Shown here: positions 2,193 through 42,927 of the stretch, in pieces | Layout of the letters: each line of letters begins with the position of its first letter | Numbering within the stretch: the stretch's first letter is position 1 | NCBI GenBank assembly: GCA_018992685.1 | Contig: JACVGT010000008.1 | Span: 3,257 to 67,256, forward strand | Length of the DNA: 64,000 bases | DNA from: Theionarchaea archaeon | GTDB taxonomy: Archaea; Methanobacteriota_B; Thermococci; Methanofastidiosales; SZ-28-30 | Direction: 5' to 3' | The notes under the pieces: generated by a model | What the model was told of the DNA's origin: nothing | Databases searched by the model: none | The model's input: the letters and a program-made list of their open reading frames with translations, nothing else | Made by a program: the position numbers and the translations under genes

Positions 2193-2914
2193 GTATCAGC
2201 TCACGTTCACAAATCTGATTAGAAGAGTGAGAAGCTGAGGTGACCCCTATCTTCTGATTGTGGAGAAGACCACAGGGAACAGACAGCAAGAGGCAAGACT
2301 CGATCGTACGCTCGTTCCTGGTCTGACTCCGCTTCTTCCAGGTCTTTGATCACATCTGGAATATAAGACTTCTTGAGCTCCACTCTTCAGTGCATTGCGG
2401 ATTTTCTTCAAGAAATGCAATTTCCATAGAAGAACCTCGTGATGGTCGTCTTGTGCAGTGTTGCCCCGATACCGTACATACTCTAAAATGTCTTTCAATT
2501 GTTCTGTTCCCTCATCGTCGAAAGCGAGAATGAAGACTCCTATTCAGGTTGCTCACCTGGTGAAAGAGGCAGCTTTGTCGTACAGATGCCACCTTCACGC
2601 ATTTCACTTCTTACAGTCATCTTTGCTGGTCGTGCTGTATTCGTTCGCTGAATGCCCTTATAAACTTTCTTGATGTGTCAGTATGAGAAAGATCGCAAAT
2701 TCAGGTATTTTTTGATTTGAAGTCTGTTTCTCTCTCTATTGGAGAGGGAACCTAATACAATATATCTCAAGAGCCAATCTCCTTACAAAGGACTTCACGT
2801 CCATCATTGCATTCTGGCAAACGATGGGTTGGTTCTGATTTTGTTCTCGTCGGAAACCTTTGTTTTACGATATCATACGGCAATCTTTTTAAGAATGTAT
2901 AGTCATCACAGACC

Positions 2915-4405
2915 ATGCAAAGACAGAAAGCAATCCTCCTGGCAGTGCTTCTGATCACGCCACCTCTGCTGGCAGCTGAAGGACCCCGGGGTCCACTGTG
3001 TGATCCCTTCCGTCCTGAAGTGGAAAACCACATTTGGTTCTGGTGGCCAGAAGGCATTGCTGGGTTTGAATTTGATGATTCTGGAACCTTATTATATATT
3101 GTGGATGGAATTCCTGCCCAATCTGGAGAACTCATTTCTTCCAGTGTGCAGAAAGAATTCCGGAAGTTACCATTAACTGGAGAATTTACCTTCTGGCGGC
3201 CCATAAAGAAGGATGGACTGGGTGGATTCTGGCTGAAGCATTTTGCAGTAAAGACCCTGAATCAGCCCTGGGGCACGGTCAGCCCGGGTGTAGATTACAA
3301 TTATCATCTCAACCTTGGGAAGAAGATAACAGAAATCAAGAGAGAAGATTTCAAATCGTTCAAAGAGCACCCCTTTGCGCAGGGCATGGGAGCCTACATA
3401 TGGAAAAAGGAAAGCTCTGAACTGTATGGTATAGAATTCGACACGAAAGGAGTTGCCAGGTACCTGGTCCATGGCATTCCGGGGGAATATTCCCTGGACG
3501 ATGTACCTCCCGACGGGTACATGACGTGGCAGCCTGTGGATTCAAAGAGTAAGGAGGGATACTGGCTGAAGCATGTTGCAGTGAGAGAACTGAGAATGCC
3601 TTGGGGAACGGTGTACCCTGGCATAGATTACCGGTTTCAATCAGAACATACTTTAGGGGAATTGACCCGAAGGCAGGCCGCAGAGTTCACTGACAACCCC
3701 TTCACTCCCGAATTGGCCAACCATATCTGGAAAAAGGAAGGGGACACGTTGCGTGGATTCAGATTCGATGAAAAAGGACATTTGCGGTACATGGTGGAGG
3801 GAATCAAGGGCTCATACACATTGGACGATGTGCCCTTTTCAGGAGAGTACACTGTGTGGGTTCCCGTCAGTCCCACCAGTTCCTCTGGATACTGGTTGAA
3901 CTATGCTGCAGTGGCTGAGTTCGAGATGCCCTGGGGAACGGTGCATCCTGGAATCGATTATAGATATGAAGATGGAAAATCTACCAAGGACCTGCCGAAG
4001 AGCAGTAAATTCACGTTCGAACCGTTTCCAGAGGGAGATTTGGAGAACCACATCTGGAGCCAGGAAATAGACTGTTTATACGGTGCGGAGTTCGACACTC
4101 AGGGGAATCTTCTGTACCTGGTTCATGGTGTGCCCGGCACCTACTCGCTCAATGATGTTCCCTTGTCAGGTGAGTATGTGGTATGGTACCCGCTCGAAGG
4201 AGGGGAACAGGAAGGGGTCTGGCTGAAGTATGTCGCAGTGAGGGAGGTTGACATGGAATGGGGTCCAGTGACCTATGGTATTGACCTCTCATACAATCAG
4301 CAGGAAGGCCACGGAATATCATTTCTGACCAGAGAGGACTACCACGAAAACTGGGACTTACTAAAGCTCTTGAAGTACTTCTGGGACGTTTTGATGGAAG
4401 ACTGA
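2915..4405 (+). CDS. Secreted protein with four tandem ~100-aa repeats of an uncharacterised domain
   Basis: N-terminal signal peptide MQRQKAILLAVLLITPPLLAAEG. There are four repeats, each with (E/A)NHIW...G(F/I)EFD...Y(L/I)V.GIPG.Y(S/T)LDDVP.(S/D)GEY..W.P...GYWL(K/N)(H/Y)(V/F)AV.E..MPWGTV.PGIDY. Confidence 0.7.
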   Translation: MQRQKAILLAVLLITPPLLAAEGPRGPLCDPFRPEVENHIWFWWPEGIAGFEFDDSGTLLYIVDGIPAQSGELISSSVQKEFRKLPLTGEFTFWRPIKKDGLGGFWLKHFAVKTLNQPWGTVSPGVDYNYHLNLGKKITEIKREDFKSFKEHPFAQGMGAYIWKKESSELYGIEFDTKGVARYLVHGIPGEYSLDDVPPDGYMTWQPVDSKSKEGYWLKHVAVRELRMPWGTVYPGIDYRFQSEHTLGELTRRQAAEFTDNPFTPELANHIWKKEGDTLRGFRFDEKGHLRYMVEGIKGSYTLDDVPFSGEYTVWVPVSPTSSSGYWLNYAAVAEFEMPWGTVHPGIDYRYEDGKSTKDLPKSSKFTFEPFPEGDLENHIWSQEIDCLYGAEFDTQGNLLYLVHGVPGTYSLNDVPLSGEYVVWYPLEGGEQEGVWLKYVAVREVDMEWGPVTYGIDLSYNQQEGHGISFLTREDYHENWDLLKLLKYFWDVLMED

Positions 4406-4463
4406 TGTGTCATTAGTAGTATCACCTGCTAGCTGCAGCTGCAGGAAACCTTGATAAGCACTG

Positions 4464-5222
4464 GTGAGTATCAGAATCATGGGAGGACCTGAAGCAAGTA
4501 TAGTGGAAGAAGCAGCACGCATTATTGATGCTGCCCATGACAATGACGTGACACTGAGGCTCCTGGGAGGGCTGGCCACCAGAATACACTGTGAACATGT
4601 GGACTTTTGCGACCGGGAGTACTCTGACATTGACATGGTGGGGCTCGGCAGAGAAAAGAGCAGGATCAGTATGTTGTTCTCAGCCCTGGGATACCTGCCC
4701 GATGAACGGTTCAATGCACTCCACGGCCACAAACGGCTGAAATTTGAAGAGACTGTGTACCACAGGCATGTGGATGTGTTTCTGGATCATTTTGACATGG
4801 ATCACGACTGGGACCTGTCCAGCAGACTGGATATTGAAAAGTACACGCTTCCTCTCAGTGATCTGCTTTTGACAAAACTCCAGATTTGCAAGATAAATGA
4901 AAAGGACATCCGGGACATACTCACCCTCCTGAAAGACTGCGCTATCGGTGAGGAAGACCTCCCTCACACCATAAACGTGGGATACATTGCAGAAAAATGC
5001 TCCGAAGACTGGGGATTATATGAAGCGGTGCTTGATAACCTGGAACATGTGGGTACATTTCTGGATACGTATGAATTGAGTGAAGAGGATAGGAATCTGG
5101 TGGAAAGGCGACTTAAACTCCTCACCAGGAACCTCATTTCACATCAGAAGACTGCCAGATGGAAGATGCGCTCTGCAGTGGGAAGACATCTGGCATGGTG
5201 CGAACAGGTAGAAGAAGAATAG
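4464..5222 (+). CDS. Hypothetical protein, possibly a nucleotidyltransferase-fold (NTP_transf_5-like) protein
   Basis: 252 aa. 'LLGGLATRIHC...EYSDIDMVG' resembles the G[GS]...D.D minimal NTase motif. The C-terminal half is helical. The assignment is weak. Confidence 0.3.
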   Translation: MSIRIMGGPEASIVEEAARIIDAAHDNDVTLRLLGGLATRIHCEHVDFCDREYSDIDMVGLGREKSRISMLFSALGYLPDERFNALHGHKRLKFEETVYHRHVDVFLDHFDMDHDWDLSSRLDIEKYTLPLSDLLLTKLQICKINEKDIRDILTLLKDCAIGEEDLPHTINVGYIAEKCSEDWGLYEAVLDNLEHVGTFLDTYELSEEDRNLVERRLKLLTRNLISHQKTARWKMRSAVGRHLAWCEQVEEE

Positions 5223-7774: not shown

Positions 7775-9031
7775 ATGAAAGCAGTAAGACTCTTTATTGC
7801 AGGGATGCTCTTGGTTTCGTTCTTTACAGTTATTTCTGAGCCATCGCAGGCAGCTTCTGCCTCGTTGAACATTAACAAAGGATGTGGAGCCACCTACTAC
7901 CCCGGAGAAGTGGTGACCATCAGCTATAAGGTGACAGCAAATGCCTCAGCAACGGTAGTGGCTTCACTCAGAGTGCAACTGCCTGATTCATCGTGGTCAA
8001 CATTTTTCATCAACAGAAGCATTCTGCCCAATGTCACGTACTATGCATCTGGAGTAGCTGGTTCGAATCTGGGAGGGAGAACAGTAGTCTTCGAGTGGGA
8101 AGCCACCTACATGGGGACTGATGCTGGGTCAACATCATGTACGTATGTAGTCTCTTCAGGTGGAGGAACTTTCGGAACCACTTTACAGATCAATAGCAAT
8201 GTTTCGGGATTCCAGGTGTGGTGGGATGGCGTGTACAGCCATACAACACCCTATAACTACGCTCTTCTGTATAATGTGCCCTCGGGAACCCATGTGGTGA
8301 CCTTGAAGAAGTCAGGATGCACCGATGCAAGCAAGACAGTTTCCATTGTTCCAGCAACCGCAAACCAGGTGACCATCAACATGAGCTGCGGCTCGAGCGG
8401 TGGTACAGAAGAAGAAGCTGACATTGATGGTGATGGTGTTCCAGACGATGAAGACGGGTGCTACAATCCTGACTGCAATGTAGTAGATAGAAATGGCTGC
8501 CCCAAGGATTCAGACAGAGACGGTGTAAATGAATGTGATGATGACTGCCCCACAGAGGCGGGAAGTCCTTCCAACGAGGGATGTCCCGCAGGTGACAAAG
8601 ACAGCGACGGTGTGACTGATGATGAAGATGCCTGCTACAATCCTGAATGCTCAATAGTTGATTCCCAGGGATGTCCAAAGGATTCCGATGGTGATGGACT
8701 GAATGATTGTGCAGATGACTGTCCCGATGAAGAAGGGGACCGGAGGAATAGAGGATGTCCTGCTGAAGATTCTGACAGCGATGGTATAACTGATGACCAG
8801 GACAACTGCTACAACCCAGGATGCACGCTGGTGGATCCCCGAGGATGCCCACGAGACTCTGACAATGATGGAATGAATGACTGTGAGGACTATTGCCCCA
8901 ACCAAGCAGGTTCCCGGAGCAACAATGGGTGCCCAGAGCAACAGCAAGCTCCCCAGTTCTGTTTGGGATCGGGACTGCTGGCACTGCTGGTCTGTCTTGG
9001 AAGTGTGGGAAAAGTCTTGAAACGGAAATAG
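7775..9031 (+). CDS. Secreted surface protein. It has an N-terminal beta-rich domain, three thrombospondin type-3-like Ca-binding Cys repeats, and a C-terminal 'PQF' + TM + KRK anchor.
   Basis: Signal peptide MKAVRLFIAGMLLVSFFTVISEPSQA. Three ~54-aa repeats (D.D.DG..D..D.CYNP.C..VD..GCP.DSD.DG.N.C.D.CP). C-terminus 'QQQAPQFCLGSGLLALLVCLGSVGKVLKRK'. An AGGAGG Shine-Dalgarno lies 8 nt upstream. Confidence 0.75.
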   Translation: MKAVRLFIAGMLLVSFFTVISEPSQAASASLNINKGCGATYYPGEVVTISYKVTANASATVVASLRVQLPDSSWSTFFINRSILPNVTYYASGVAGSNLGGRTVVFEWEATYMGTDAGSTSCTYVVSSGGGTFGTTLQINSNVSGFQVWWDGVYSHTTPYNYALLYNVPSGTHVVTLKKSGCTDASKTVSIVPATANQVTINMSCGSSGGTEEEADIDGDGVPDDEDGCYNPDCNVVDRNGCPKDSDRDGVNECDDDCPTEAGSPSNEGCPAGDKDSDGVTDDEDACYNPECSIVDSQGCPKDSDGDGLNDCADDCPDEEGDRRNRGCPAEDSDSDGITDDQDNCYNPGCTLVDPRGCPRDSDNDGMNDCEDYCPNQAGSRSNNGCPEQQQAPQFCLGSGLLALLVCLGSVGKVLKRK

Positions 9032-12806: not shown

Positions 12807-13073
12807 ATGAAGCTGGTTAAAGAAGGTAAAGCTGGAACTAATGATGATTCTGACATTCTCATAGAAGTACAGCCTGCTGACACTGTCACGATTGAACTGG
12901 AAAGCAGAGTTAACACGTTGTATGGAAAGAAAATCCGGGAAGTCATTATGGAGACAGTGGAAACCCTCCAGGTAGAAGGGTGTGCCATTTCTGCCCATGA
13001 TAATGGAGCACTTGACTATACGATCCGTGCGCGCGTTGAAGCTGCAATACGACTGGCGGGAGGGATTGAATGA
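12807..13073 (+). CDS. citD: Citrate lyase acyl carrier protein (gamma subunit)
   Basis: 88 aa. 'MKLVKEGKAGTNDDSDILIEV...HDNGALDYTIRARVEAAIRLAG' aligns with E. coli CitD, including the prosthetic-group Ser14. Confidence 0.85.
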   Translation: MKLVKEGKAGTNDDSDILIEVQPADTVTIELESRVNTLYGKKIREVIMETVETLQVEGCAISAHDNGALDYTIRARVEAAIRLAGGIE

Positions 13074-13912
13074 TACGCAGATCTCGACTGTACATTCCTG
13101 GAAACAATCCCAAGATGATGCAGAGTGGCAAAGCATTGAACCCTGATGTCATTCTGCTGGACTTAGAGGACTCAGTCCCTCTACACGATAAATTGGCTGC
13201 ACGTCTCCTGGTGAGAGAGGCCATCACATTCCTGCAATTTAGAAAAGAAGTCATGGTGAGGATAAATCACTTCCCCATGGGAAAAGAGGATCTGAAAGAG
13301 GTTGTATGCGAGCAGGTGGATTCTGTTCTCTACCCAAAGTCGGAATCGTCTCAGGATATCGAAGAAGTTGCTGAACTGCTGGATGAATTGGAGAGCGCCA
13401 GATCACTCTCCAAGAGAATTGACATCGTGCCGGTAATTGAAACTGCCCGAGGGTGCCTGCGCTGTGAAGAAATCGCACTCTCGCCCAGGGTCTCTGCTAT
13501 CACTTTTGGAGCGGAGGACTTTGTGGCAGATATTGGAGGCACCAGAACCAGGGAAAGTCTGTTCCATGTGAAATCAACCCTTGCTGTTGCTGCTGCAGCA
13601 GCAGGGATCCAGGCCCTGGACACGGTATATCCTTTTATTGATGATGAGAAAGGGCTGAAAAAAGAAGCAGAAGAGAGCAAAGCCATGGGATTCTGCGGTA
13701 AGGGCGCCATCCACCCTCTGCAGCTGGCTGTAATCCATGAGGTATTCTCCCCGTCTGCAGAAGAGATAGCGTGGGCACAGAAGGTCATTGAAGCACTGAA
13801 AGATGCAGAAGAAAAGGGGAGAGCAGCTGCACAGCTTGAAGGACGGATGATTGATACGCCCACCTTGAAGAAAGCTCATCGCATCATGGAAACATACAAG
13901 GTGATGACGTGA
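13070..13912 (+). CDS. citE: Citrate lyase beta subunit (citryl-CoA lyase, HpcH/CitE family)
   Basis: 'RSRLYIPGNNPKMMQSG...DVILLDLEDSV' and 'GAEDFVADIGG' are CitE signatures. There is a 4-bp overlap with citD. Confidence 0.85.
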   Translation: MIRRSRLYIPGNNPKMMQSGKALNPDVILLDLEDSVPLHDKLAARLLVREAITFLQFRKEVMVRINHFPMGKEDLKEVVCEQVDSVLYPKSESSQDIEEVAELLDELESARSLSKRIDIVPVIETARGCLRCEEIALSPRVSAITFGAEDFVADIGGTRTRESLFHVKSTLAVAAAAAGIQALDTVYPFIDDEKGLKKEAEESKAMGFCGKGAIHPLQLAVIHEVFSPSAEEIAWAQKVIEALKDAEEKGRAAAQLEGRMIDTPTLKKAHRIMETYKVMT

Positions 13913-15441
13913 TTGTAAACGCTGCAGGCAGAACGCTCCCCGAGCAGATTGGAGGCCAGAAGGTTGAACCCTTCAGAGGAGCATTTGCCACACCTCCCCG
14001 GAAGAAGAGACTGTCTCCTAAGCTCTCGTACGTGAAACCCAGCGAGGACAAACTCATTTCTCTGGAAGATGCTGTCAAGAACTACGTGAAAGATGGCATG
14101 ACCATTTCGTTCCATCACCATCTGCGGGATGGGGACTACCTGGTGAACCAAGTGCTGGAGATGGTTTCCGACCTGGGGATCAAGGATATTGTCCTGGCAT
14201 CCACAGCACTCTTCCCCGTTCACGAACCTGTGGTGCAGCACCTGATGGAAGGCACCGTGCGCCGGATTGAAGGTAGTATGAATGGGCCGGTGGGAAGGGC
14301 GTGCTCTTTCGGACGCATGAAGGAAATAGCCACTCTCAGAGACCATGGGGGGAGAGCAGCTGCTGTTGAAATGGGAGACCTTCCCATTGATGTGGCCTTC
14401 ATTGCTGCTCCTACTGCAGACACCTACGGCAACTGCAATGGCGTCCACGGAAAATCAGCCTGTGGTCCCCTGGGTTATTCCTACCCAGACTCGCTCTACG
14501 CCAAGAAAGTCATTGCAGTCACTGACAACCTGGTAGAATATCCCGCAACCCCCATGAGCATCCATCAGACTCATGTGGATCACGTGGCTGAGATTGAAAC
14601 CATTGGGAATCCGGAACGAATAGTTTCAGGCACCACACAGGTCACCAGAAGTCCCACTAATTTGCAGATAGCAGATTTCGTGATAGAGACCATGGATGCT
14701 CTGGGAATTATCAGCAAAGGAGCTTCGATCCAGGCAGGCGCTGGAGGGATTTCCCTTTCTGTTACTTCTCAGATGGGAGATCTGATGGAAGACCGCCACG
14801 TGGTGGGCGGGTTTGGATTGGGGGGTGTTACCCAGTATCTGGTGGACATGCTGCACAGGGGGGTCATCCGAAAGATTCTGGATGCCCAGTGCTTTGATCT
14901 CACTGCAGTCCAGTCACTGCGGGAAGATCCCGATCATGTAGAAATCAACATGATCTACAGCAGCCCATACAACAAAGGGTCTGTATACAACCAGCTGGAC
15001 GCAGCGTTCCTGGGTGCTACAGAAGTGGATGTGGATTTCAATGTCAATGTCAACACCCATTCTGACGGACTGCTGCTTCATGGCATTGGGGGTCACCAGG
15101 GGCCTGCAGCCTGTGCCAAGGTCACCTTTATTACGGTACCCCTGTACAGAAAGAGAATTCCTGTGGTTCGGGACAGAGTAACAACAATTACCACTCCCGG
15201 AGAGGTCATTGATGTCATTGCCACAGAATACGGTATTGCTGTAAATCCCAGGCGAAAAGATATCCTGAAACAGGTTGAAAAAGCCAAGATACCAGTGCTG
15301 ACAATTGAAGAATTGAAAAAAGAAGCATATGACCTGTGTGGGGAGCCCGAACTTCCTGAAACCACAGATGACATTGTGGCTGCAATCCAGTGGAGAGACG
15401 GAACTGTCCTGGATACGGTAAAAAGAGTCGTGGAGACATAG
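13909..15441 (+). CDS. citF: Citrate lyase alpha subunit (citrate CoA-transferase)
   Basis: 510 aa with full-length similarity to CitF (PF04223). There is a 4-bp overlap with citE. Confidence 0.8.
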   Translation: MIVNAAGRTLPEQIGGQKVEPFRGAFATPPRKKRLSPKLSYVKPSEDKLISLEDAVKNYVKDGMTISFHHHLRDGDYLVNQVLEMVSDLGIKDIVLASTALFPVHEPVVQHLMEGTVRRIEGSMNGPVGRACSFGRMKEIATLRDHGGRAAAVEMGDLPIDVAFIAAPTADTYGNCNGVHGKSACGPLGYSYPDSLYAKKVIAVTDNLVEYPATPMSIHQTHVDHVAEIETIGNPERIVSGTTQVTRSPTNLQIADFVIETMDALGIISKGASIQAGAGGISLSVTSQMGDLMEDRHVVGGFGLGGVTQYLVDMLHRGVIRKILDAQCFDLTAVQSLREDPDHVEINMIYSSPYNKGSVYNQLDAAFLGATEVDVDFNVNVNTHSDGLLLHGIGGHQGPAACAKVTFITVPLYRKRIPVVRDRVTTITTPGEVIDVIATEYGIAVNPRRKDILKQVEKAKIPVLTIEELKKEAYDLCGEPELPETTDDIVAAIQWRDGTVLDTVKRVVET

Positions 15442-15482
15442 CGTGTCCCTTGCCCCCTCGCAACCCCAAGAGCCTGGAACCC

Positions 15483-16019
15483 ATGTTGATGGAGGACATC
15501 GAGCATTTTGCTGAATCCTGTTGCCAGCAGGATCCTGAAGACCCGCATCTTTTTGCTCACGTGCAGCTGGTAAGACAGTTTGCTGTGGAACTTGCCCGTT
15601 CCGAAACCGCAGACAGTGACGTGTGCGAGATAGCAGCCCTGCTCCATGATATTGGGAAGTGCACGGGAAGAAAAGATCATCACATAACTGGACGAGAGAT
15701 GGCAGAACACGTTCTGGAGACAGTCACCCTCCAACAGGAAAGGAAAGACCTGATTCTGAAGTGTATTGTGAACCGCAGAGCCATCCCTTCAGAGGATGAC
15801 GAGATTGAAGTCAGGATCGTGCAATCTGCTGACTGCCTGGGAGCACTCTTCCATGATGAATGGCAGGAGCACTGCAGGAAGACAATGTCTCGGGACGTAC
15901 TCATGCAGTTTTATAATGAAGGCTGCTTTCAAAGGCTCAGTATTGAATCTGCAAGAGCAATTGCCCTGCCCCGGCTGGAAATCCTGAAGGAACGGCTTAT
16001 CACAGAATCCTTCCACTGA
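15483..16019 (+). CDS. HD-domain phosphohydrolase. Probable start is MLMEDIEHF; the track ORF starts at 15390, overlapping citF.
   Basis: 'IAALLHDIGK...H' is an HD motif. The product is ~178 aa. Confidence 0.65.
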   Translation: MLMEDIEHFAESCCQQDPEDPHLFAHVQLVRQFAVELARSETADSDVCEIAALLHDIGKCTGRKDHHITGREMAEHVLETVTLQQERKDLILKCIVNRRAIPSEDDEIEVRIVQSADCLGALFHDEWQEHCRKTMSRDVLMQFYNEGCFQRLSIESARAIALPRLEILKERLITESFH

Positions 16020-16064
16020 CCCAGACCAGATGTATTCTCTCCGGGACACGGAATAGGACATGGG

Positions 16065-16658
16065 CTACCTGTGTTCTACAACATGCATGGCGAGATCTGC
16101 TAGGGTCTTCAGTATCAGAAACACCACCAGGGGAAGTGTCCCTGGCGAAATCACTCCAAAAACAATGATGACCAGATGCATGGGAAGGATACGAACGTAG
16201 GGAAAGAACATCACCCTGCCGATATTCGGTATCTTTTTCCTGTCCTGCCCCCTATTGTACCTGAATGAGAAGAAGTGATTAACTAGGAACACGAGAGATC
16301 CCAGTGCCACATACGGTATTTCAACGTGACCGCTCTGGGTAACCAGAAATGTCCCATAAATGAAGTGAAAGAACCCATAGTGGAGAGAGAAGAAAGTGGC
16401 CACCTGGCGTCTGGTCTTTGCAGTGGGAGGAACAGACTGATGGTTCATTGTGAACCCTTCTGTTGAGAACTTCTGCAGTGATAGAATGCGCGCGACATTG
16501 AACCCTCCAAGAATGACACTCTGGACCCAGTATACCGTCATGAGGGTACGCAGAGACCATGGTTCAACGAGAGCACAAACAATGGTGACGCCGTTGGAGA
16601 AAAGGAGCACCCAGAAGGATACGTCTTTATAGAAGTGTACAGGTCCTGGGTTGTTCAT
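16065..16658 (-). CDS. Hypothetical polytopic membrane protein
   Basis: 197 aa with 5-6 predicted TM helices. No recognisable motif. Confidence 0.5.
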   Translation of the reverse strand: MNNPGPVHFYKDVSFWVLLFSNGVTIVCALVEPWSLRTLMTVYWVQSVILGGFNVARILSLQKFSTEGFTMNHQSVPPTAKTRRQVATFFSLHYGFFHFIYGTFLVTQSGHVEIPYVALGSLVFLVNHFFSFRYNRGQDRKKIPNIGRVMFFPYVRILPMHLVIIVFGVISPGTLPLVVFLILKTLADLAMHVVEHR

Positions 16659-16737
16659 GCATGCACTCTAAGAGCAGCTATAAAAGGATTTCTTTCCTAT
16701 TTCTGGCTGTAACCCCCTCTGCTGTAAACCTTTAAAT

Positions 16738-17319
16738 ATGTCAACTGCCCAGACATACAAATGGATCCAGTTCGTGCAGCACGGATCGACAGGAGGGACT
16801 ACCATGAATGAAGAATATCTCAGAAAGACATTTCCTCAAATAGATCTCATAAAAGACCCTGATCTCAGAAAAAAAGTCATTTCTACATTCTTAAAGACTG
16901 CTCAGAGTGGAGGCTGGGATACGCTTGAAGGAATACCTTTCACCCTGCTCACCGATACATCAGTTACCTTTGCGGACCATACCAAGGCAGTGACTGACAT
17001 GGCTGTCCACTGTGCAGATGTCATGCAGAAGTTCGTTCCCATCAACCGGGACTATGTGGTGGCAGGTGGGCTCTTACACGACGTGGGAAAGCTGCTGGAA
17101 TATCAGAAGAAAGAAGGGAAGGTCACCCAGAGCAGGTATGGTGCCTTGCTGCGGCATCCCGTGTCCGGTGCAGTCATTGCTGGTGAAGTCGGTCTTCCCC
17201 CGGAGATCATCCACATTATTAGTGCCCACTCCAAAGAAGGTGATGCTGTCAAGAGAATTCCTGAAGCCATCATCATCCATCACTGCGATTTCGTACACTT
17301 TGAGAGTTTGAAGAAATAG
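16738..17319 (+). CDS. HD-domain phosphohydrolase
   Basis: 'VAGGLLHDVGKLLEY...IISAHSKEGD...IIHHCDF' gives HD-domain metal ligands. 193 aa. Confidence 0.7.
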   Translation: MSTAQTYKWIQFVQHGSTGGTTMNEEYLRKTFPQIDLIKDPDLRKKVISTFLKTAQSGGWDTLEGIPFTLLTDTSVTFADHTKAVTDMAVHCADVMQKFVPINRDYVVAGGLLHDVGKLLEYQKKEGKVTQSRYGALLRHPVSGAVIAGEVGLPPEIIHIISAHSKEGDAVKRIPEAIIIHHCDFVHFESLKK

Positions 17320-17404
17320 ACTGTTGCAGGTACCCCGTGAGACCTTCATACTCGAGTCAGGAGAACCAGGCTGCCCCGGGAATCTGCAATATTTATATTG
17401 ATAT

Positions 17405-18808
17405 ATGAGAATGCGTGCTGGAGGTTTTCTCATGGAATCTATCAGTCAAAAAATGGCACAATTCGCCCTCCGCCTGGAGTATAAGGACATCCCTCCAGAG
17501 GCGGTGAAGGAGGCTAAACGATTCCTCCTGGACAGCATCGGATGTGCCCTGGCTGCCTGTCATAATGAGGACATGGATAATGCAGTGCAGTATATTACAA
17601 ATTTAGGCGGGCACCCACAATCCACCATCATTGGATATGGACACAAAACCAACATGCCAAATGCAGCCCTGATGAACTCTCTTCTCATACGAGCTCTTGA
17701 TTACAATGACATCTACTGGAAGCAGGACCCGTCTCACCCTTCAGATATTATTCCCGCTGCCCTATGTCCTGGTGAATACCGACACTGCTCTGGAAAAGAG
17801 CTGATCACCAGTATTGTCATTGCGTATGAACTTGAGATGCGCCTGTGTCTGGCAGCTCATCCCGGTGTGCGGGAAGTCGGGTGGCACCATGCTACCCTGA
17901 CCCAGTTCGTCAGCCCCATCGTGGCAGGCGTCTCCCTGGGATTGACAGAGGAACAGATAGTGGCTGCTGTGGGCATCTCTGGATCTTCTCACTCCACCTT
18001 CGGTGGCGTGGTGGCAGGAGCTCTCACCAACATGAAGAACACGGCAGATCCCATGGCGACAGAAGCGGGTGTGCGGGCAGCCATGCTCGCTCAAACGGGA
18101 TATACAGGACCTGTCCACGTGTATGAAGGAAAAGAGGGGTTGTTCCAGGTCATCAACAATGTCAAGTGGGATGAATCCATACTTACTGAGCATCTGGGCA
18201 CGGACTTTCTGATTACCCAGTGTGAGTACAAGGCCTTCCCCACTGAAGCCTTGACCCATCAGCCAATAACTGCTGTCTTAACCCTCATGGAGGAGAACAC
18301 CGTTGACCCACACCAGGTCACAGAAATCCTCGTTGAAACTACCACACGGGGAGCTGACATTCTGTCTGATCCCTCAAAGTACAACCCCACCACCAAGGAG
18401 ACAGCTGATCACTCCCTTCCCTACTGTATTGCGGTAGCTGCAGCCAAGGGGAACGTACTGCCCAGTGACTTTGAGGAACAAGCACTCTTTGACCCTCTGG
18501 TGCGGGAGTTGATCAAAAAGGTGAAAGTGGTCGCCAATCCGGAAATTGATTCCCTCTTCCCCAAGATCAAGCGTGCCGTCTGTTCCATAACCACCAAAGA
18601 GGGAAAGACGTACACGAGACAGGAAGATTTCGCCAGGGGAAGCACAGGATATCCCATGACAGACCAAGAGCTCGTCAGCAAGTTCAAAGCGAACTCAGGT
18701 ACTCAGATGTCAGAATCACGTCTTGAAAAGATTACGGATGCCACCTTCAACTGCGAAAAGTTCACAGATATCACCGATTACATGGAAATCCTTGTTAGCG
18801 ACCTGTAA
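17405..18808 (+). CDS. MmgE/PrpD-family protein (2-methylcitrate dehydratase / cis-aconitate decarboxylase superfamily)
   Basis: 467 aa with full-length PrpD-like architecture ('RFLLDSIGCALAA...ALMNSLLIRALDYNDIY'). The probable start is MESISQK at 17432. Confidence 0.8.
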   Translation: MRMRAGGFLMESISQKMAQFALRLEYKDIPPEAVKEAKRFLLDSIGCALAACHNEDMDNAVQYITNLGGHPQSTIIGYGHKTNMPNAALMNSLLIRALDYNDIYWKQDPSHPSDIIPAALCPGEYRHCSGKELITSIVIAYELEMRLCLAAHPGVREVGWHHATLTQFVSPIVAGVSLGLTEEQIVAAVGISGSSHSTFGGVVAGALTNMKNTADPMATEAGVRAAMLAQTGYTGPVHVYEGKEGLFQVINNVKWDESILTEHLGTDFLITQCEYKAFPTEALTHQPITAVLTLMEENTVDPHQVTEILVETTTRGADILSDPSKYNPTTKETADHSLPYCIAVAAAKGNVLPSDFEEQALFDPLVRELIKKVKVVANPEIDSLFPKIKRAVCSITTKEGKTYTRQEDFARGSTGYPMTDQELVSKFKANSGTQMSESRLEKITDATFNCEKFTDITDYMEILVSDL

Positions 18809-30748: not shown

Positions 30749-31327
30749 ATGAGAACCCTGGAGGGGATACCCATGATAGTGTACAGTAGCCCGAGCCCAG
30801 AAGAGATTGAGGAAGACCTTGAGGAGATTCTGAGAGAACTTGGGTACATTAGGTCAGAGTACCCACCTACCGTTCCTCTCCCTGTATCCAAGGCAGTGCT
30901 GATCATTTTTGTTCTTGTTCTCATGCTTCTCCTGACGTATCTGGTGGTAACCTGGATTTCACGTCCCTCGGGAAAAGTCACTATCCCCCGGAAAAGAGAA
31001 GAAGAAATTCTGGTGAAAAAAAAGGATTACTATGGACTGTACAAGACAGCCCTGACCCTGGGATCTAGAAAGGAGTATGCAGAAGCAGTACGCATTCTAT
31101 ACATGGCACTCCTTGTGCTCCTAGACACTCAGAATGTAATTTCATATCATCCATCTTTAACAAACTATGAGTACAGGCAGAAAGTTCATGCCTACGCTTT
31201 CAGTGGCCTCTTCAACAGGATGACCAGCATCTTTGACGTTGTATACTACGGTGGTACTCCTGCAACAGGACATGACTTTTCCCAGTGCGTGGAAGCTTTC
31301 ACGCACATTCAGGAGGCGCTATCATGA
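30749..31327 (+). CDS. DUF4129-domain membrane-anchored protein
   Basis: One TM then 'DYYGLYKTALTLGSRKEYAEAVRILYMALLVLLDTQNVISYHPSLTNYEYRQ', typical of DUF4129. 192 aa. Confidence 0.6.
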   Translation: MRTLEGIPMIVYSSPSPEEIEEDLEEILRELGYIRSEYPPTVPLPVSKAVLIIFVLVLMLLLTYLVVTWISRPSGKVTIPRKREEEILVKKKDYYGLYKTALTLGSRKEYAEAVRILYMALLVLLDTQNVISYHPSLTNYEYRQKVHAYAFSGLFNRMTSIFDVVYYGGTPATGHDFSQCVEAFTHIQEALS

Positions 31328-32250
31328 AGTGGGCACATGTTCTCACACTCGTGGTGTTCGTGGTGGGAGTGGTGTCAGTGGCTGTCATTGCAGAACAAGT
31401 CAATCTCCCGCCTGCTCATTCTTCAAAAGACGCTGAAGAAATGGGAACCCTGGCCTTTTACCTGCTGATGGAAAAGTACACGGAAGTGGAACGAATTAAA
31501 GACACCATAGAAGCGTTGGATCCCGGAAGCCTCCTTCTGATCTATCCTGTTCGACCCCTGGCTCCAGAAGAAAAGGAACATGTACTCACCTGGGTGAAGG
31601 AGGGGAACAGACTGATCATATTCACTGAATCGCCTGAAATAGCAGAGGATTTTGGAGTGAACATCACCCCAGCCGAGGACGGACTGGCCTCAATAACCCC
31701 CAATGATCACTGGTCAACCAGAGATGTCCACATGGTCAGGGTTCGCTATCAGCAGTCCATCGACACCGATGTCAATATCATCCTGGCTGATGCTGAGAAT
31801 GTCCTGGCAGCAGAAATCCCATATGGATTGGGAGAAATCGTCGTCATCACTTGTACCTCACTGGTTGAAAATTATTCTATTGACCGGGCTGATAATGAGA
31901 TATTCCTGGTCCGGCTATCCCTCTCTGAGAAAGTGTATTTTGACGAGTACCACCTCTACCTGATTGATCAGTCAACGGGGATGACTCTCAGCAAGATCAA
32001 GACTGCATTTTCCTCCAGGTACAGCTCGTTTTTCATTCAATTGATCATTACAATTACCATATTCATGGTGAGCTATGGTAAGCGATTTGGGAAGGCAAGA
32101 CCATCTGTTACCAGGGGCGTACAGTCCTCGCAACTGGTGACTTCTGCAGCAGAACTGTACTACAGGGCACGGAAAAAGGAAATTCTGGATCTGATTGAAG
32201 CCCATTCCCCGCTTATTCACAGCAATAAAAACTCTGATATAAAGCCCTGA
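31324..32250 (+). CDS. DUF4350-like protein with N- and C-terminal TM anchors. Probable start is MKWAHVL (ATGA overlap); the track ORF starts at 31285.
   Basis: N-terminal TM, a large extracytoplasmic domain and a C-terminal TM. Position and topology match DUF4350 partners of MoxR/DUF58. Confidence 0.5.
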   Translation: MKWAHVLTLVVFVVGVVSVAVIAEQVNLPPAHSSKDAEEMGTLAFYLLMEKYTEVERIKDTIEALDPGSLLLIYPVRPLAPEEKEHVLTWVKEGNRLIIFTESPEIAEDFGVNITPAEDGLASITPNDHWSTRDVHMVRVRYQQSIDTDVNIILADAENVLAAEIPYGLGEIVVITCTSLVENYSIDRADNEIFLVRLSLSEKVYFDEYHLYLIDQSTGMTLSKIKTAFSSRYSSFFIQLIITITIFMVSYGKRFGKARPSVTRGVQSSQLVTSAAELYYRARKKEILDLIEAHSPLIHSNKNSDIKP

Positions 32251-32263
32251 GAGGTGAAAAAAA

Positions 32264-33205
32264 GTGTTTAATGATGTGGTAACCCAGATGAAAACGGAAC
32301 TCCACAAAGTCATTGTGGGGTATGATTCACTTCTGGAATTGCTGTTGGTTTCCTTCTTCTCTTCTGGACACTGTCTCCTGGAAGGAGTGCCGGGGACAGC
32401 CAAGACCTTGATGGTGAGAGCGTTGTCCAAGATACTGAGTCTTGATTTCTGTAGAATTCAGTTCACTCCGGATTTGATGCCTTCAGACATTATTGGAACC
32501 AATGTCTTTGACTTGGACACGGGGACATTCCACCTGAAGAAAGGTCCCATCTTCACCAATCTGCTCCTTGCCGATGAAATCAACAGGGCCCCTCCCAAGA
32601 CACAGGCTGCTTTGCTGGAAGCCATGGAAGAACGACAGGTGACCATAGATGGAGTGACGCATCCTCTTTGTGAGTTCATGGTATGTGCCACTCAGAACCC
32701 CATTGAGTACGAAGGAACCTATCCTCTACCTGAGGCGCAGCTGGACCGGTTCATGATGAAATTGGCGGTCCCCTATCCTGACATCAAGGAAGAGGTTGAC
32801 ATACTCCAGCTCTATCAGACGGGGTTTGATGCACATAACTTGGATGCCATCCACTTTGACTACCGTGTGGACCAGGAACAGATTGAGGCTATCAGGAAGG
32901 AGATCTTCCAGGTGAGAATTCAGCCTGAGGTCATGGAGTACATCACCAGGATTGTCAGAGCCACCAGAGAGTCACCTCACGTTGTCCTGGGTGCCAGCCC
33001 TCGAGCATCTGTGGTGCTCTTCCAGACGGCAAAGAGTTTTACAGCCATGCAGGACGAACAATTCGTTACTCCTGATACTGTGAAACGGATGGCTTTTCCT
33101 GTGATGCGCCACCGGATTATTCTGAAACCTGAAGCTGAAATTGAAGGGTTGACAGCAGACCAAGTGATTGCAGAGTGCCTGGAAAAGGTGGAGGTGCCCC
33201 GGTAG
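32264..33205 (+). CDS. MoxR-family AAA+ ATPase
   Basis: 'LLEGVPGTAKT' Walker A, 'LLADEINRAPPKTQAALLEAMEE' Walker B/sensor. 313 aa. Confidence 0.9.
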   Translation: MFNDVVTQMKTELHKVIVGYDSLLELLLVSFFSSGHCLLEGVPGTAKTLMVRALSKILSLDFCRIQFTPDLMPSDIIGTNVFDLDTGTFHLKKGPIFTNLLLADEINRAPPKTQAALLEAMEERQVTIDGVTHPLCEFMVCATQNPIEYEGTYPLPEAQLDRFMMKLAVPYPDIKEEVDILQLYQTGFDAHNLDAIHFDYRVDQEQIEAIRKEIFQVRIQPEVMEYITRIVRATRESPHVVLGASPRASVVLFQTAKSFTAMQDEQFVTPDTVKRMAFPVMRHRIILKPEAEIEGLTADQVIAECLEKVEVPR

Positions 33206-34488
33206 TGGTTCCTTCTTCTCGATGTGTAATCCTTTTTGCTCTGGGCTGTCTCGTGGCTGTACTAGGGAAGGCTCCATACTACAATGCTGTGGTCCTTGCC
33301 GTAATCATTACTGATTTTCTGATTTCATATAGACAGTCTTTCGTTCTAACGCGAGATTTTGACCCTGTCCTTTCCATTGGGGTGGAGAATCCAGTCTCCA
33401 TAGGAGTGGAAAACAATTCACCAGCCCCCCTCCGTCTCCTCATAAAGGATGAGTACCCTACAGGATTTTCCAGCAGCTGTCCTGAACTCTCAACCACGAT
33501 CCCTGCCTTTGAATCTGAGACTCTCAGGTATACGGTCACCCCCTATAAACGAGGAGAATACCTGTTTGGAACCTGCTTTGTCCGGAGAAGAAGCAGGCTG
33601 GGACTGTGGCTTTTTGACGAGGCTGTTCCGATGAAAGAAGATGCCCGGGTCTATCCCAATGTCCAGATGGTAAGAAAGTATGATCTTCTGTCAAGAAAAC
33701 AGATGTTGAACCTGGCCGGGATAAAGCCTTCCAGAATCTTTGGGCAGGGTACAGAATTTGAAATGCTCAGAGATTACCAGGTGGATGATGAGTACAGGGC
33801 GATAGACTGGAAGGCCACATCCAAGAAAGGAACACCTGTTTCCAGAGTGTACCAGGTGGAAAGAACTAAGAGAGTAGTGCTGATGCTGGACACGGGAAGA
33901 ATCATGGGGGTCAATGTGGGGGATTTGACCAAACTGGAGCATGCTGTCAATTCTGCCCTGCTGGTCTCTTTTGTTGCCCTGCGACTGGGTGAACGGGTGG
34001 GGTTATGTACTTTCTCTTCAGAGATAAAAGAGTACATACCTCCGCAGGGAAGACAGATCCAGTTCCCAATCATCTTGAAAACACTATACAATGTTAAGGG
34101 TGATTCTTTTGAATCTGACTACAAGAAAGCCTTTGAGTTCGTGGCCTCTCAAAACAAGAAGAGGACCTTGGTGATTGTGTACACTGATTTGATTGAAAGC
34201 CATATTTCCAGAGGATTGATTCAGTACTCAGCAGCTCTTCAAAGAGCTCACCTTCCCATGGTGGTTGCAGTCAAGGATACAAACATAGCCCACATTGCCA
34301 ATAGCATTCCCGGGTCGGAACGAGAACTGTACCAAAAGGCAGTGGCTCTGAGTCTGCTAAAAGAGAGGAAGAAGGCCATAGCCGAATTGACGAGAAGAGG
34401 AATGCGAGTGGTGGATGAACTCCCCGAGAATCTGACCATTTCCACCTTAAACAAATACCTGGAGTTGAAACACACATACAGAATCTAA
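33175..34488 (+). CDS. DUF58 protein (vWA-like partner of MoxR)
   Basis: 'FEMLRDYQVDDEYRAIDWKATSKKGTPVSRVYQVERTKRVVLMLDTG' is the DUF58 hallmark. N-terminal TM helices. 437 aa. Confidence 0.8.
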   Translation: MPGKGGGAPVVVPSSRCVILFALGCLVAVLGKAPYYNAVVLAVIITDFLISYRQSFVLTRDFDPVLSIGVENPVSIGVENNSPAPLRLLIKDEYPTGFSSSCPELSTTIPAFESETLRYTVTPYKRGEYLFGTCFVRRRSRLGLWLFDEAVPMKEDARVYPNVQMVRKYDLLSRKQMLNLAGIKPSRIFGQGTEFEMLRDYQVDDEYRAIDWKATSKKGTPVSRVYQVERTKRVVLMLDTGRIMGVNVGDLTKLEHAVNSALLVSFVALRLGERVGLCTFSSEIKEYIPPQGRQIQFPIILKTLYNVKGDSFESDYKKAFEFVASQNKKRTLVIVYTDLIESHISRGLIQYSAALQRAHLPMVVAVKDTNIAHIANSIPGSERELYQKAVALSLLKERKKAIAELTRRGMRVVDELPENLTISTLNKYLELKHTYRI

Positions 34489-40662: not shown

Positions 40663-42501
40663 CTACTCGCTTGTTGGAATGAGATTGGACACGCTTCTGA
40701 AGGAGGGGTTGGTTCTGGCAAGCCGCTCTCTCACCAGAGGGAACAATTCCAGGTTGGAGTGTGGAAAATACATCGCATCCACGAACTCCTGCTGAAAGTC
40801 CTTCCGAGATGAAAGCTCCACATAGTTGACAGATTCAGAAATTACCCGGGCCTTCTTCCTTTCTTTCACTGAAAGTAAACACAGCTTGGCCCCCACCCCC
40901 GCTGCGTTCCCTATACCCTTGATCTTCTCTGTAGGGATGTCAAAGATCAATCCGATGTCCTTTGCTGCCTCCTTGGGAATGTAGTTACCAAAGGCACCTG
41001 CCAATGCGATTTCTTCAACATCCTTCACTGTCACTCCGTACGTCTTCAGCAGAATCCTCTGGGCTGCAAAAATCGCTCCCTTGGCCAACTGGATCTCTCT
41101 CAGGTCTTTCTGAGTAACTGCAATTGCACCATTGATCACGAACGAATCGTTTTTCATCCTGGAGGCAAACCTCTCACTTGTCTGGAGCTTCCCAGCCGCA
41201 TTGATCAAACCATTTCTGAGCAGCTCTGCTGTTACACTGATCAACCCAGAGCCAGCAATTCCCTGGGGTGGCTCGTCATCAATCGTGTGGACTGTCACGT
41301 GGTCATTGATCTCCACCCGTTCGATAGCCCCGGGCGCTGCCCGCATCCCGTATCTGATATGGGTGCCTTCAAAAGCAGGGCCTGCAGCAGTAGAACAGGC
41401 CAAAACCCTGTCCTCCGTTCCCAGAACTACTTCACAGTTTGTTCCTATATCAATAAGGAGGCGCAAACGGTCATCAAGAGGATGCGCAATGATATCTGCC
41501 ACGGTATCTGCTCCCACAAATCCCGCTATCATTGGGAGCACATACATTCGCTTTCCATACAGTGTGGAAGGAACAGACAGGGGTTCTTTCACCACAGGAA
41601 TATAGGGGGAAACAGCCAGACTGCGGGGAGAAATACCCAGGAGCAGATGCTGCATGCAGGCATTTCCCGCCACTACCAGCTCATAGACTTCGCCTTTTCT
41701 TGTTCCAGCTGCATCTGCAAGTTCGGTGATAATGCCCATAAGGCAGTCTCGCAGTGATCTACGCAACCGGTCCAGATTCTCAGGATTCTGAGCAAAATTG
41801 ATCCTGGAAATGACGTCATCCCCATAACTGATCTGTGGATTCATCCTGGCCTTGACAGCGCATTGTTCTCCTGAATTTAAATCCATGAGGTAACCCACCA
41901 CAGTGGTCGTTCCGACATCAAAGGCCACTCCGAAACAACGATCACTGGTGTCACCTCTCTCGCATCCCACCAGTTCATCTCCCAGGAGAACCAGAGTGAC
42001 CTCGAATTTGGAATCCCTCATGGCCACGGGTATTTGGTTCAGAGCTTCCAGGCTGACAGACCTCATATCGTACTCCATCGAGTCCCTCAGCCTCTCTACA
42101 TCCGTCCTGTTGTCCTCCAGAGACGGTTCTGGGAGCTTGAGGAAGATCTTCTTGACATTGGGGGCTAATAGTATCTTTCTGGTGACCCCTTCCACCAGGA
42201 TACGCTGCTTTCTGGCCAGCGATTCCTCGGGTATGTAGACAGTAAGGTTTTTGTCAACAATAGCCTGACATGCCAATCTGAACCCTCGTCTCAACTCATT
42301 CTGGGAGAAGAATTCCATTTCCTCTTCAGTGTATCCTTCGTAGCCAGATACCTGCACCTTACACTTGCCACACAACCCTTTTCCTCCACATTCAGCGCGC
42401 AGCTGGATCCCTGCGGCGTGTGCGGCCTCCAGTACTGTGTGCCCTGGTTCCACCAGAAGGCGTTTTGCTGAGGGTTGAAAGGTTACCTGAAGGCTGACCA
42501 T
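40663..42501 (-). CDS. RACo-like ferredoxin-ASKHA ATPase (COG3894 / DUF4445; reductive activase family). Probable start MVSLQVTF; the track ORF extends to 42600.
   Basis: N-terminal plant-type 2Fe-2S ferredoxin 'CGGKGLCGKCKV...ACQ', followed by an ASKHA fold 'VAFDVGTTTVVGYL'. Confidence 0.75.
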   Translation of the reverse strand: MVSLQVTFQPSAKRLLVEPGHTVLEAAHAAGIQLRAECGGKGLCGKCKVQVSGYEGYTEEEMEFFSQNELRRGFRLACQAIVDKNLTVYIPEESLARKQRILVEGVTRKILLAPNVKKIFLKLPEPSLEDNRTDVERLRDSMEYDMRSVSLEALNQIPVAMRDSKFEVTLVLLGDELVGCERGDTSDRCFGVAFDVGTTTVVGYLMDLNSGEQCAVKARMNPQISYGDDVISRINFAQNPENLDRLRRSLRDCLMGIITELADAAGTRKGEVYELVVAGNACMQHLLLGISPRSLAVSPYIPVVKEPLSVPSTLYGKRMYVLPMIAGFVGADTVADIIAHPLDDRLRLLIDIGTNCEVVLGTEDRVLACSTAAGPAFEGTHIRYGMRAAPGAIERVEINDHVTVHTIDDEPPQGIAGSGLISVTAELLRNGLINAAGKLQTSERFASRMKNDSFVINGAIAVTQKDLREIQLAKGAIFAAQRILLKTYGVTVKDVEEIALAGAFGNYIPKEAAKDIGLIFDIPTEKIKGIGNAAGVGAKLCLLSVKERKKARVISESVNYVELSSRKDFQQEFVDAMYFPHSNLELFPLVRERLARTNPSFRSVSNLIPTSE

Positions 42502-42927
42502 GAAGGTACATGCTTGAGAACAGATAAAAAGCTTTGCTATCAAATGAAGGAGGTCTATTCTGTGATATGTCCAGCAGAGAGCGTACTTTACATATATCAA
42601 GGTTCAGAGGTACCTATCATCTTCATATACCCTGAGACCTCATACTCTACATATACCAAGGCCCCAAAGTGATATTCAGGTAGAATTTATGTCACATTAT
42701 GCTTCTCATGGAGCAGAAGGAGCATACATTCCTGTTAACAGTATTCGGTGAGCGGTGGATAATTCTCAAGGAATGTCTCCCTGGGACGCAAGGGTGAGGA
42801 CTCTGAATTCGGGAAGGTCCTGGGTTCTCTATCCACCTCACCCGGTCAACCACAGGTCTGGAGACTACTCCACGATGAGCTTCAAGCTGCAAAACCTTTA
42901 ATAAAGAGCTGCAACAAGAGAGAACAA

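Follow-up and report, generated by a model that had tools for sequence, protein, structure and literature searches.

A predicted secreted four-repeat protein of Theionarchaea and its kinship with an undescribed family of histidine-rich extracytoplasmic domains

ZepA, an extracellular zinc-scavenging protein of cyanobacteria, binds zinc at a three-histidine H-X(2-9)-H-F/Y-H site (PMC10957091). A three-histidine motif, and its loss, is also at the centre of the present analysis, which concerns a gene of the Theionarchaea, anaerobic fermenters of sediment organic matter (PMC12806544). The gene lies in a stretch of 64,000 nucleotides (the window) of a Theionarchaea archaeon, taken from contig JACVGT010000008.1 of assembly GCA_018992685.1 (positions 3,257 to 67,256, forward strand), and encodes a protein made of a predicted signal peptide followed by four tandem repeats. 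Secreted proteins built of tandem beta domains are familiar; what is new here is that the domain family is present in none of the libraries searched and that the window protein is a derived form of it, without the metal site.

Architecture and conservation of the four-repeat protein

The product of 496 amino acids (aa) is identical to the hypothetical protein HXS49_09740 (Theionarchaea archaeon) at NCBI and consists of a signal peptide, four homologous repeats of ~109 aa and a conserved amphipathic C-terminal helix. The features are listed below with their coordinates in the window.

2915..4405, + strand: four-repeat protein gene, complete, from the list of open reading frames (ORFs); 496 aa; stop codon at 4403-4405
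2886..2893, + strand: candidate archaeal TATA box, A/T-rich TTTTTAAG, ~25 nt 5' of the ATG, read from the sequence
2915..2977, + strand: signal peptide, aa 1-21 MQRQKAILLAVLLITPPLLAA; predicted cleavage before E22; helix at aa 2-18 in the AlphaFold2 (AF2) model
2978..3025, + strand: nearly invariant mature N-terminus, aa 22-37 EGPRGPLCDPFRPEVE, from alignment A1; contains Cys29
2996..3361, + strand: repeat 1 (R1), aa 28-149; the most derived repeat and the best conserved among orthologues; proposed binding head
3026..3073, + strand: aromatic patch of R1, aa 38-53 NHIWFWWPEGIAGFEF; columns N38-F53 invariant in 16/16 orthologues; includes WFWWPEG
3125..3154, + strand: R1-specific insertion of 10 aa, aa 71-80, GELISSSVQK; short AF2 helix at aa 76-81, predicted local distance difference test (pLDDT) score < 50 at aa 80-83
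3362..3688, + strand: repeat 2 (R2), aa 150-258, from the repeat alignment; domain E = 2e-14 against the hidden Markov model (HMM) of His-rich seeds
3689..4015, + strand: repeat 3 (R3), aa 259-367, from the repeat alignment; the repeat that was modelled alone
4016..4342, + strand: repeat 4 (R4), aa 368-476; with an end, QQEGHGISFLTREDY, similar to the C-terminal extension found in the single-domain proteins P0019 and P0020
4355..4396, + strand: amphipathic C-terminal helix, aa 481-494 DLLKLLKYFWDVLM; aa 482-494 modelled as a helix by AF2, at low pLDDT; highest hydrophobic moment 0.65

The four tandem copies had been proposed in a preliminary description of this DNA, and they are borne out by pairwise identities of 35-49% among R1-R4 and by Smith-Waterman scores between repeats of 174-281 against a shuffled mean of ~29 (standard deviation ~5; z = 29-49). 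The NHIW/AYIW anchors stand at aa 38, 160, 269 and 378, giving periods of 122, 109 and 109, and the WG(T/P)V anchors at aa 119, 230, 340 and 449. All the motifs quoted in that description (NHIW, G(F/I)EFD, GIPG.Y.LDDVP, GYWLK(H/Y)VAV, MPWGTV.PGIDY) are present; its repeat unit of ~100 aa is to be corrected to ~109 aa, and it did not mention the C-terminal tail, a conserved segment of ~20 aa after R4 in which W480, D481, K487, Y488 and W490 are invariant in alignment A1. The same alignment shows H39, E52 and H109 of R1 to be invariant among orthologues. Where R1 has the invariant NHIWFWWPEGIAGFEF, R2-R4 read IWKKExxxL.

The protein starts with a basic n-region (MQRQK) and a stretch of 16 hydrophobic residues that is its sole hydrophobic segment. 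Identity among orthologues rises from 34% at aa 1-21 to 87% at aa 22-37, and the ratio of non-synonymous to synonymous substitution rates (dN/dS) is 0.43-0.89 in the signal region versus ~0.1 elsewhere. This jump at aa 21/22, together with the relaxed dN/dS, is what one expects of a signal peptide that is cleaved off before the near-invariant EGPRGPLCDPFRP. Such sequence patterns show an N-terminus that behaves as a cleaved signal peptide, as the preliminary description had it, and mark the protein as secreted. The mature form would have 475 aa and 54.8 kDa, with an acidic isoelectric point (pI) of 4.9, 4.2% Trp and 15.6% aromatic residues. Only two cysteines occur in the window protein, and Cys29 is found in 13 of the 15 orthologues that cover the site. 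The idea of a lipoprotein was rejected, since, of the 15 orthologues whose N-terminus is intact, only 4 have a Cys directly before EGPRGP, in a non-canonical context, and the window protein reads LLAA-EG at this place.

Homologues of the full-length protein form 18 clusters among 5.8 billion, and those with a name come from Theionarchaea or Methanofastidiosia. Alignment A1 comprises 16 of them (15 full length, one truncated at the N-terminus), with the four-repeat architecture in each and identities of 55-83%; three repeats each are present in the two shortest clusters, which lie on contigs of 1.2-1.4 kb. The architecture is stand-alone throughout, with no enzymatic fusion among the 18 clusters. 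When the full-length alignment was searched against 185,579 species-representative genomes, one further Theionarchaea metagenome-assembled genome was found to carry the protein. The four-repeat protein is confined to Theionarchaea.

Comparison with two orthologues gives a dN/dS of 0.10-0.13 overall and of 0.06-0.13 in each repeat. As judged from these substitution rates, the gene is shown to be real and all four repeats to be under strong purifying selection. Furthermore, orthologous repeats are 59-76% identical versus 34-46% for paralogous ones, so the quadruplication is older than the Theionarchaea sampled here, and every repeat is under constraints of its own. Identity among orthologues reaches 76% in R1 (90% in its core at aa 36-66) as against 59-66% in R2-R4, while the single-domain relatives introduced below score 58-66 bits with the R1 HMM and 82-94 bits with those of R2-R4. 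R1 is thus the repeat least like these relatives and yet the best conserved, a pattern that fits a repeat with a newly gained, important function.

Modelled alone with AF2, R3 yields seven beta strands with a pLDDT of 92.1 and a predicted template modelling score (pTM) of 0.83. The full-length model has a pLDDT of 84 and a pTM of 0.80, which implies a fixed arrangement of the four domains. Foldseek found no credible match for the single-repeat and full-length models in the PDB, nor for the single repeat in BFVD. The top matches of the full-length model (RhsA, teneurin, OspA and LptD) have TM scores of ~0.1 and root-mean-square deviations > 17 A and reflect only the richness in long beta sheets.

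A protein of this kind could be structural, i.e. an S-layer or S-layer-associated protein that builds or braces the cell wall with its four rigid beta domains, although we consider this unlikely. The signal peptide, the pI of 4.9, the beta-rich multi-domain rigid body and the lack of a catalytic signature are in keeping with such a role; the conserved C-terminal amphipathic helix could dock to membrane or lattice, and a second secreted protein with a C-terminal anchor is encoded 3.4 kb downstream. However, the window protein has no N-glycosylation sequon against 1.2 +/- 1.0 expected, and its orthologues have 0-3 at positions that are not conserved. Neither a C-terminal transmembrane anchor nor a PGF-CTERM-type signal is present, the C-terminus being the amphipathic helix with its final FWDVLMED. 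S-layer proteins are fast-evolving, and conservation as strong as that found here (dN/dS ~0.1, R1 core 90% identical) is unusual for them. The idea of an S-layer glycoprotein was set aside as unsupported by the sequon and hydrophobicity tests.

Relationship to a family with three invariant histidines

A profile of 64 repeats was searched exhaustively with HMM methods against 1.84 billion representative proteins and gave 81 matches at E <= 1e-3. This search for the repeat brought to light, besides the Theionarchaeal orthologues, a wider family that is undescribed. The closest matches (E ~1e-25) are the single-domain proteins P0019 and P0020, which have an N-terminal membrane anchor. The next tier consists of extracytoplasmic proteins with one or two domains of the same core and a His-rich insert, FTHFH...AGHGG, which we call the His-triad or sister family, and the most distant tier of Clostridial DUF7922 proteins in which half of the domain is matched. 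An alignment of the repeat with the His-triad family (alignment A3) by hhalign reaches a probability of 99.7% and E = 2e-26 over 93 columns, and an HMM made only from 10 His-rich seeds recovers R1, R2, R3 and R4 with domain E = 3e-12, 2e-14, 1e-15 and 1e-10. Because the HMM matches are reciprocal and are joined by the hhalign result, the homology of the window repeat to the His-triad family is secure.

In the 34 aligned sister domains of A3, the three histidines H65, H67 and H78 of FTHFH...AGHGG are invariant, as are G86 and W88; HFH lies on strand 4, and GHG in the loop after it. The positions aligned to THFH read TFWR, MTWQ, TVWV and VVWY in R1, R2, R3 and R4, the GHG loop is deleted in all four, and the triad is likewise lost in the consensus of the 64 repeats from 16 orthologues. 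Another histidine of the sister family (FLHFD), one that is less conserved, is E or R in the window repeats. The rest of the core is kept, namely PF, xHxW, EFD, LxYxVxGxxGxY, VP, GYWLK, AV, WGxV and PGxD. As the His triad is lost in all four repeats, the ancestral metal site cannot operate in the window protein.

The members that retain the triad are associated with electron carriers. C-terminal fusions to Cytochrom_C (P0022), Copper-bind (P0023) and Cupredoxin_1 (P0047, P0086, P0177) occur, a plastocyanin-type or cytochrome c gene stands immediately next on the same strand in three of six sister-family genomic contexts, and a weak Cytochrome_P460-like gene lies nearby in two others. A second search gave 87 matches, all annotated as 'hypothetical protein', with Natronolimnohabitans, Binatia, Gemmatimonadota, Chloroflexi and Methanoperedens as named sources; the superfamily as a whole is found in Haloarchaea, Methanoperedens, Chloroflexi, Gemmatimonadota, Binatia, Thermomicrobiales and Clostridia. 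The His-triad domain has no Pfam or NCBIfam model and no PDB sequence match, and a literature search on an 'HFH motif' with copper found no paper. On these grounds the family is a candidate for a periplasmic metallo-redox domain, possibly a copper one, that was not previously recognised. Its domain spans ~120 aa (FTHFH...AGHGG..GYWL), as in L004 5001-6011, L005 5001-6107 and L006 5001-5968. Other genes seen in sister-family contexts encode Crp/FNR regulators, an ECF sigma/NrsF pair, DUF411 and MbnB/HvfC/DoxX proteins.

The kinship raises the question of a residual metal or electron-transfer function outside the cytoplasm, exerted through another site or a bound cofactor; candidate ligands are H39/E52/D54/H109 in R1 and H220 in R2, and the activity might serve the reduction of sulfur compounds. 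Theionarchaea have indeed been proposed to reduce polysulfide and thiosulfate (PMC12806544), the homology to a family with members fused or adjacent to cupredoxin or cytochrome c is secure, the His-less relative P0197 sits in a Ferric_reduct/DUF5654/ferredoxin cluster, and H39, E52 and H109 are invariant in R1. We nevertheless regard this function as improbable. The triad is substituted (HFH to a TVW-type sequence) or deleted (GHG loop) in every repeat, R3 and R4 do not conserve the putative residual ligands, and of the only two cysteines Cys29 is not universal. Moreover, in the four loci of Theionarchaea that were examined, i.e. the window and the orthologous loci L001-L003, the surroundings of the gene contain no gene for an electron carrier, cupredoxin, c-type cytochrome, Ferric_reduct or metal-handling protein.

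The absence of a named domain, as originally stated, holds for all libraries searched, and the repeat maps to no well-known fold or family in Pfam, NCBIfam, PDB sequences or, by Foldseek, PDB and BFVD structures. The whole window protein gives 0 families at E <= 10 in Pfam and NCBIfam. The 64 orthologous repeats and 34 sister domains, scanned one by one, give no consistent family, and 20 relatives together with all members of alignments A2 and A3 give none for the repeat domain. The best recurring weak match, mRNA_G-N7_MeTrfase (9 of 64 repeats, E >= 0.003; also P0006), was judged to be due to chance. Phmmer and profile searches of PDB sequences with the repeat domain found no match; the tick lipocalin Arg r 1 (E = 0.19, owing to a GGYWLK string; Foldseek TM < 0.3 for lipocalin-like structures) and an antibody heavy chain (E = 0.69) were rejected as chance. 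No CBM (carbohydrate-binding module) or lectin family matches at E <= 10 in Pfam scans of the protein, its repeats and the sister domains.

These comparisons change the meaning of the aromatic and proline core, in which a sign of glycan binding had first been seen. Nearly all of its positions are also conserved in the His-rich family, namely the W of xHxW, the F of EFD, the Y of LxY, GxY/F, the P of VP, GYWL, PWG and PGxD. Being shared with a family of metal/redox appearance, these residues are fold-defining and are not evidence of a sugar site. None of the homologues is fused to a carbohydrate-active enzyme, no such enzyme is encoded beside the gene in the window or L001-L003, and none lies within 8 kb of the window gene. 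A binding surface is now suggested by a single feature, the invariant WFWWPEG patch specific to R1, and glycan binding by the four-repeat protein is possible.

A tentative reading of the function

We tentatively favor, with less than even confidence, a secreted, metal-free and non-catalytic protein that binds or scaffolds in the archaeal cell envelope or the extracellular space. The four domains would pack into one rigid body, as modelled with a pTM of 0.80, a covalent counterpart of the tandem or oligomeric state of the sister family. R1 would act as the ligand-binding head, its aromatic patch holding a glycan, another polymer, a hydrophobic surface or a component of the envelope, and R2-R4 would provide a scaffold or spacer. 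With its amphipathic helix, the C-terminus may keep the protein at the membrane or envelope, or cause it to oligomerise. For anaerobic fermenters, the capture of polymeric substrates or attachment to particles would be a reasonable setting for such a protein; we offer it as context and not as evidence.

Several points weigh against this interpretation. P0197, the closest single-domain His-less relative, is encoded between a Ferric_reduct gene and the DUF5654 and ferredoxin genes, and the invariant H39, E52 and H109 of R1 could form a different, smaller metal site. Furthermore, we infer rather than observe the exposure of WFWW and the geometry between domains, and the same holds for the putative binding of a ligand and retention at the surface.

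The R1 patch and the C-terminal helix could also be read as the tools of a membrane-active protein, in which the WFWWPEG loop and the helix would insert into the cell's own membrane for anchoring or into a foreign one for antagonism. Trp-rich loops mediate binding to the membrane interface in several secreted proteins, and by this analogy the invariant cluster of four aromatics in a loop or strand end of R1, with the strong hydrophobic moment of the helix, would fit. However, Pfam and Foldseek show no sequence or fold similarity to pore-forming or lipid-binding families, the neighbourhood is a conserved housekeeping one without an immunity-like partner, and the strong conservation is not the diversifying pattern expected of antagonistic proteins. 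We hold such an activity to be very improbable.

A more far-reaching scenario, which we regard as doubtful, extends the favored binding or scaffold role to the history of the domain. The repeat would represent a new fold and a new extracytoplasmic superfamily with a sister branch; the ancestor would have held a three-histidine centre, most plausibly of copper, that traded electrons with a co-encoded cupredoxin or cytochrome c; and the Theionarchaea would have turned it into a metal-free quadruplicate, a rigid pseudo-tetrameric surface receptor with its site at the Trp cluster of R1.

The immediate outcome is that one well-defined and strongly constrained secreted protein is added to what is known of poorly known, uncultured sediment archaea, although metagenome-assembled genomes commonly encode lineage-specific surface proteins like this one. 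Of wider interest is a superfamily that is absent from Pfam and NCBIfam and has no detectable solved structure. The sister His-triad family, which is widespread, linked to electron carriers and entirely unannotated, may merit more attention than the window protein itself. If the His-triad branch is indeed one of metalloproteins or redox enzymes, the Theionarchaeal protein would be a natural case of the loss of a metal centre with reuse of the scaffold, and would be useful as a metal-free control for the study of that family.

Genomic setting and comparison with known systems

An in-frame stop at 2900-2902, upstream of the ORF, makes the ATG at 2915 the earliest possible start. The TATA-like ATCTTTTTAAGAA is kept at identical spacing in the orthologous loci L001 and L008, and TTTATAAA is found at a similar distance from the start in L002 and L003. 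Such an element implies that the gene would have its own promoter and a near-leaderless mRNA. A scan for sigma-70 promoters and intrinsic terminators was set aside as not applicable to an archaeon. The upstream stretch at 2193-2914 is unusually long (~720 bp) and contains no convincing ORF, only one of 83 aa on the minus strand (2247-2498); in the corresponding region three small genes (51-111 aa) are called in L001, and the gap is only ~130 bp in L002 and L003. The four-repeat gene's stop codon is separated by a 58-nt spacer from the GTG at which the next gene starts; at 4433-4444 this spacer contains a perfect 12-nt palindrome, CTGCAGCTGCAG, with no T-run after it.

The neighbours in the window are genes for an ATP-grasp CoA-ligase beta subunit, a 252-aa protein without assigned function, an SDR and an MFS transporter. 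The order ATP-grasp CoA-ligase beta, four-repeat gene, ~250-aa protein and SDR is also found in L002 and L003, whose four-repeat proteins are 64-65% identical to that of the window and where one additional gene on the opposite strand separates the four-repeat gene from the ~250-aa gene; only the downstream portion of this order recurs in L001. The conserved neighbours look cytoplasmic. The upstream gene (1095-2192, + strand) encodes a succinyl-CoA-synthetase beta-like ATP-grasp/CoA-ligase with no alpha-subunit gene adjoining, and is a conserved neighbour in L002 and L003. The 252-aa protein (4464-5222, + strand) has no Pfam match and looks cytoplasmic; in all the orthologous loci that were examined its gene lies 3' of the four-repeat gene, which it follows without an intervening gene in the window and L001, and the SDR comes next in each locus.

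Another secreted protein carrying a signal peptide together with a PEGA domain is encoded at 7775-9031 (+ strand) and is conserved in L001. It has four Asp-rich calcium-binding repeats of thrombospondin-type-3-like form (DxDxDGxxDxxD, with paired Cys), and its C-terminus, with PQF, a hydrophobic segment and a basic tail, is reminiscent of a PGF-CTERM/archaeosortase signal. The remaining window is an ordinary archaeal chromosome (citrate lyase, PrpD, GluRS, AspRS, RACo, geranylgeranyl reductase), in which no further copy of the repeat domain was found. It includes a cluster of a CitE-like HpcH/HpaI aldolase, the citrate lyase alpha subunit CitF and an MmgE/PrpD family protein at 13070-18808 (+ strand), a MoxR-type DUF4350/DUF58-VWA cluster at 31285-34488 and the RACo corrinoid activator at 40663-42600 (minus strand).

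As regards known systems, the likeness to ZepA is a motif-level analogy that concerns the sister family only, both being secreted three-histidine proteins (PMC10957091); a broadened search of the literature yielded no other analogue at this level. Compared at that level, the order of the ZepA motif is reversed with respect to HFH...H, and ZepA is a two-domain PEP-CTERM protein of ~27 kDa (PMC10957091); such histidines are missing from the window protein. The profile-search matches include no ZepA-like or PEP-CTERM protein. Carbohydrate-binding modules resemble the repeat in being small all-beta extracellular domains that occur in tandem and are rich in Trp and Tyr, and R1 may offer an aromatic platform; in contrast to them, the repeat has no CBM, lectin or fold match, no carbohydrate-active enzyme is fused or neighbouring, and the conserved aromatics are mostly fold-core positions common to a non-lectin family.

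The Clostridial DUF7922 proteins (e.g. Clostridium novyi A0Q3E6 / WP_039226226) match profile positions 15-77 with their C-terminal ~60-70 residues (E = 1e-6 to 1e-4), over the core LxGxxYDxxGxxxYxxxGIPG...QP...GY...W...GYW. They differ in that the match is partial, in their N-terminal DUF7922 domain and long, low-complexity linkers rich in Lys and Glu, and on inspection they look non-secreted. Proteins of this type are P0031, P0033, P0039, P0046, P0048 and P0060, from Clostridium novyi and relatives; a literature search found no paper mentioning DUF7922.

The closest non-orthologous relatives (E = 1e-25) are the single-domain, His-less proteins P0019, P0020 and P0196-P0198, which are metagenomic and probably bacterial. 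Like the window repeats they have no His triad and show the motifs EFD, GxxGxY, GEH/Y-V-W and GYWLR, and their C-terminal extension QExGHGLxxL is also seen after R4. However, they have one domain, an uncleaved transmembrane anchor with a linker of ~45 aa in place of the signal peptide, and, at the site of the deletion in the window repeats, a longer loop free of His. Their genes stand in a context of Ferric_reduct, DUF5654 and ferredoxin genes. A same-strand cluster at L012 4929-6844 encodes a Ferric_reduct (PF01794) membrane protein, P0197, DUF5654 and a 4Fe-4S ferredoxin, and a DUF5654 neighbour occurs again at L009 691-1587. From the context of P0197, the His-less members may act in transmembrane electron transfer too.

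Finally, the His-triad family (e.g. P0045, P0022, P0023 and P0097 of Natronolimnohabitans) has PF, xHxW, (E/H)FD, LxYxGxGxxGxF/Y, P, GYWLxHxAV and PWGxVxPGxD in common with the window repeats. Its members are likewise extracytoplasmic, by a signal peptide, a Tat motif or a transmembrane anchor, and tandem duplication is common, many of them having two domains. They differ by the three invariant histidines, which are substituted or deleted in all window repeats, and by the Cytochrom_C, Copper-bind or Cupredoxin_1 domain that is fused to them or encoded by the next gene, neither of which applies to the window gene. The four-domain architecture, the invariant mature N-terminus, the NHIWFWWPEGIAGFEF segment and the insertion of R1, and the C-terminal helix are, on the other hand, specific to the Theionarchaea.

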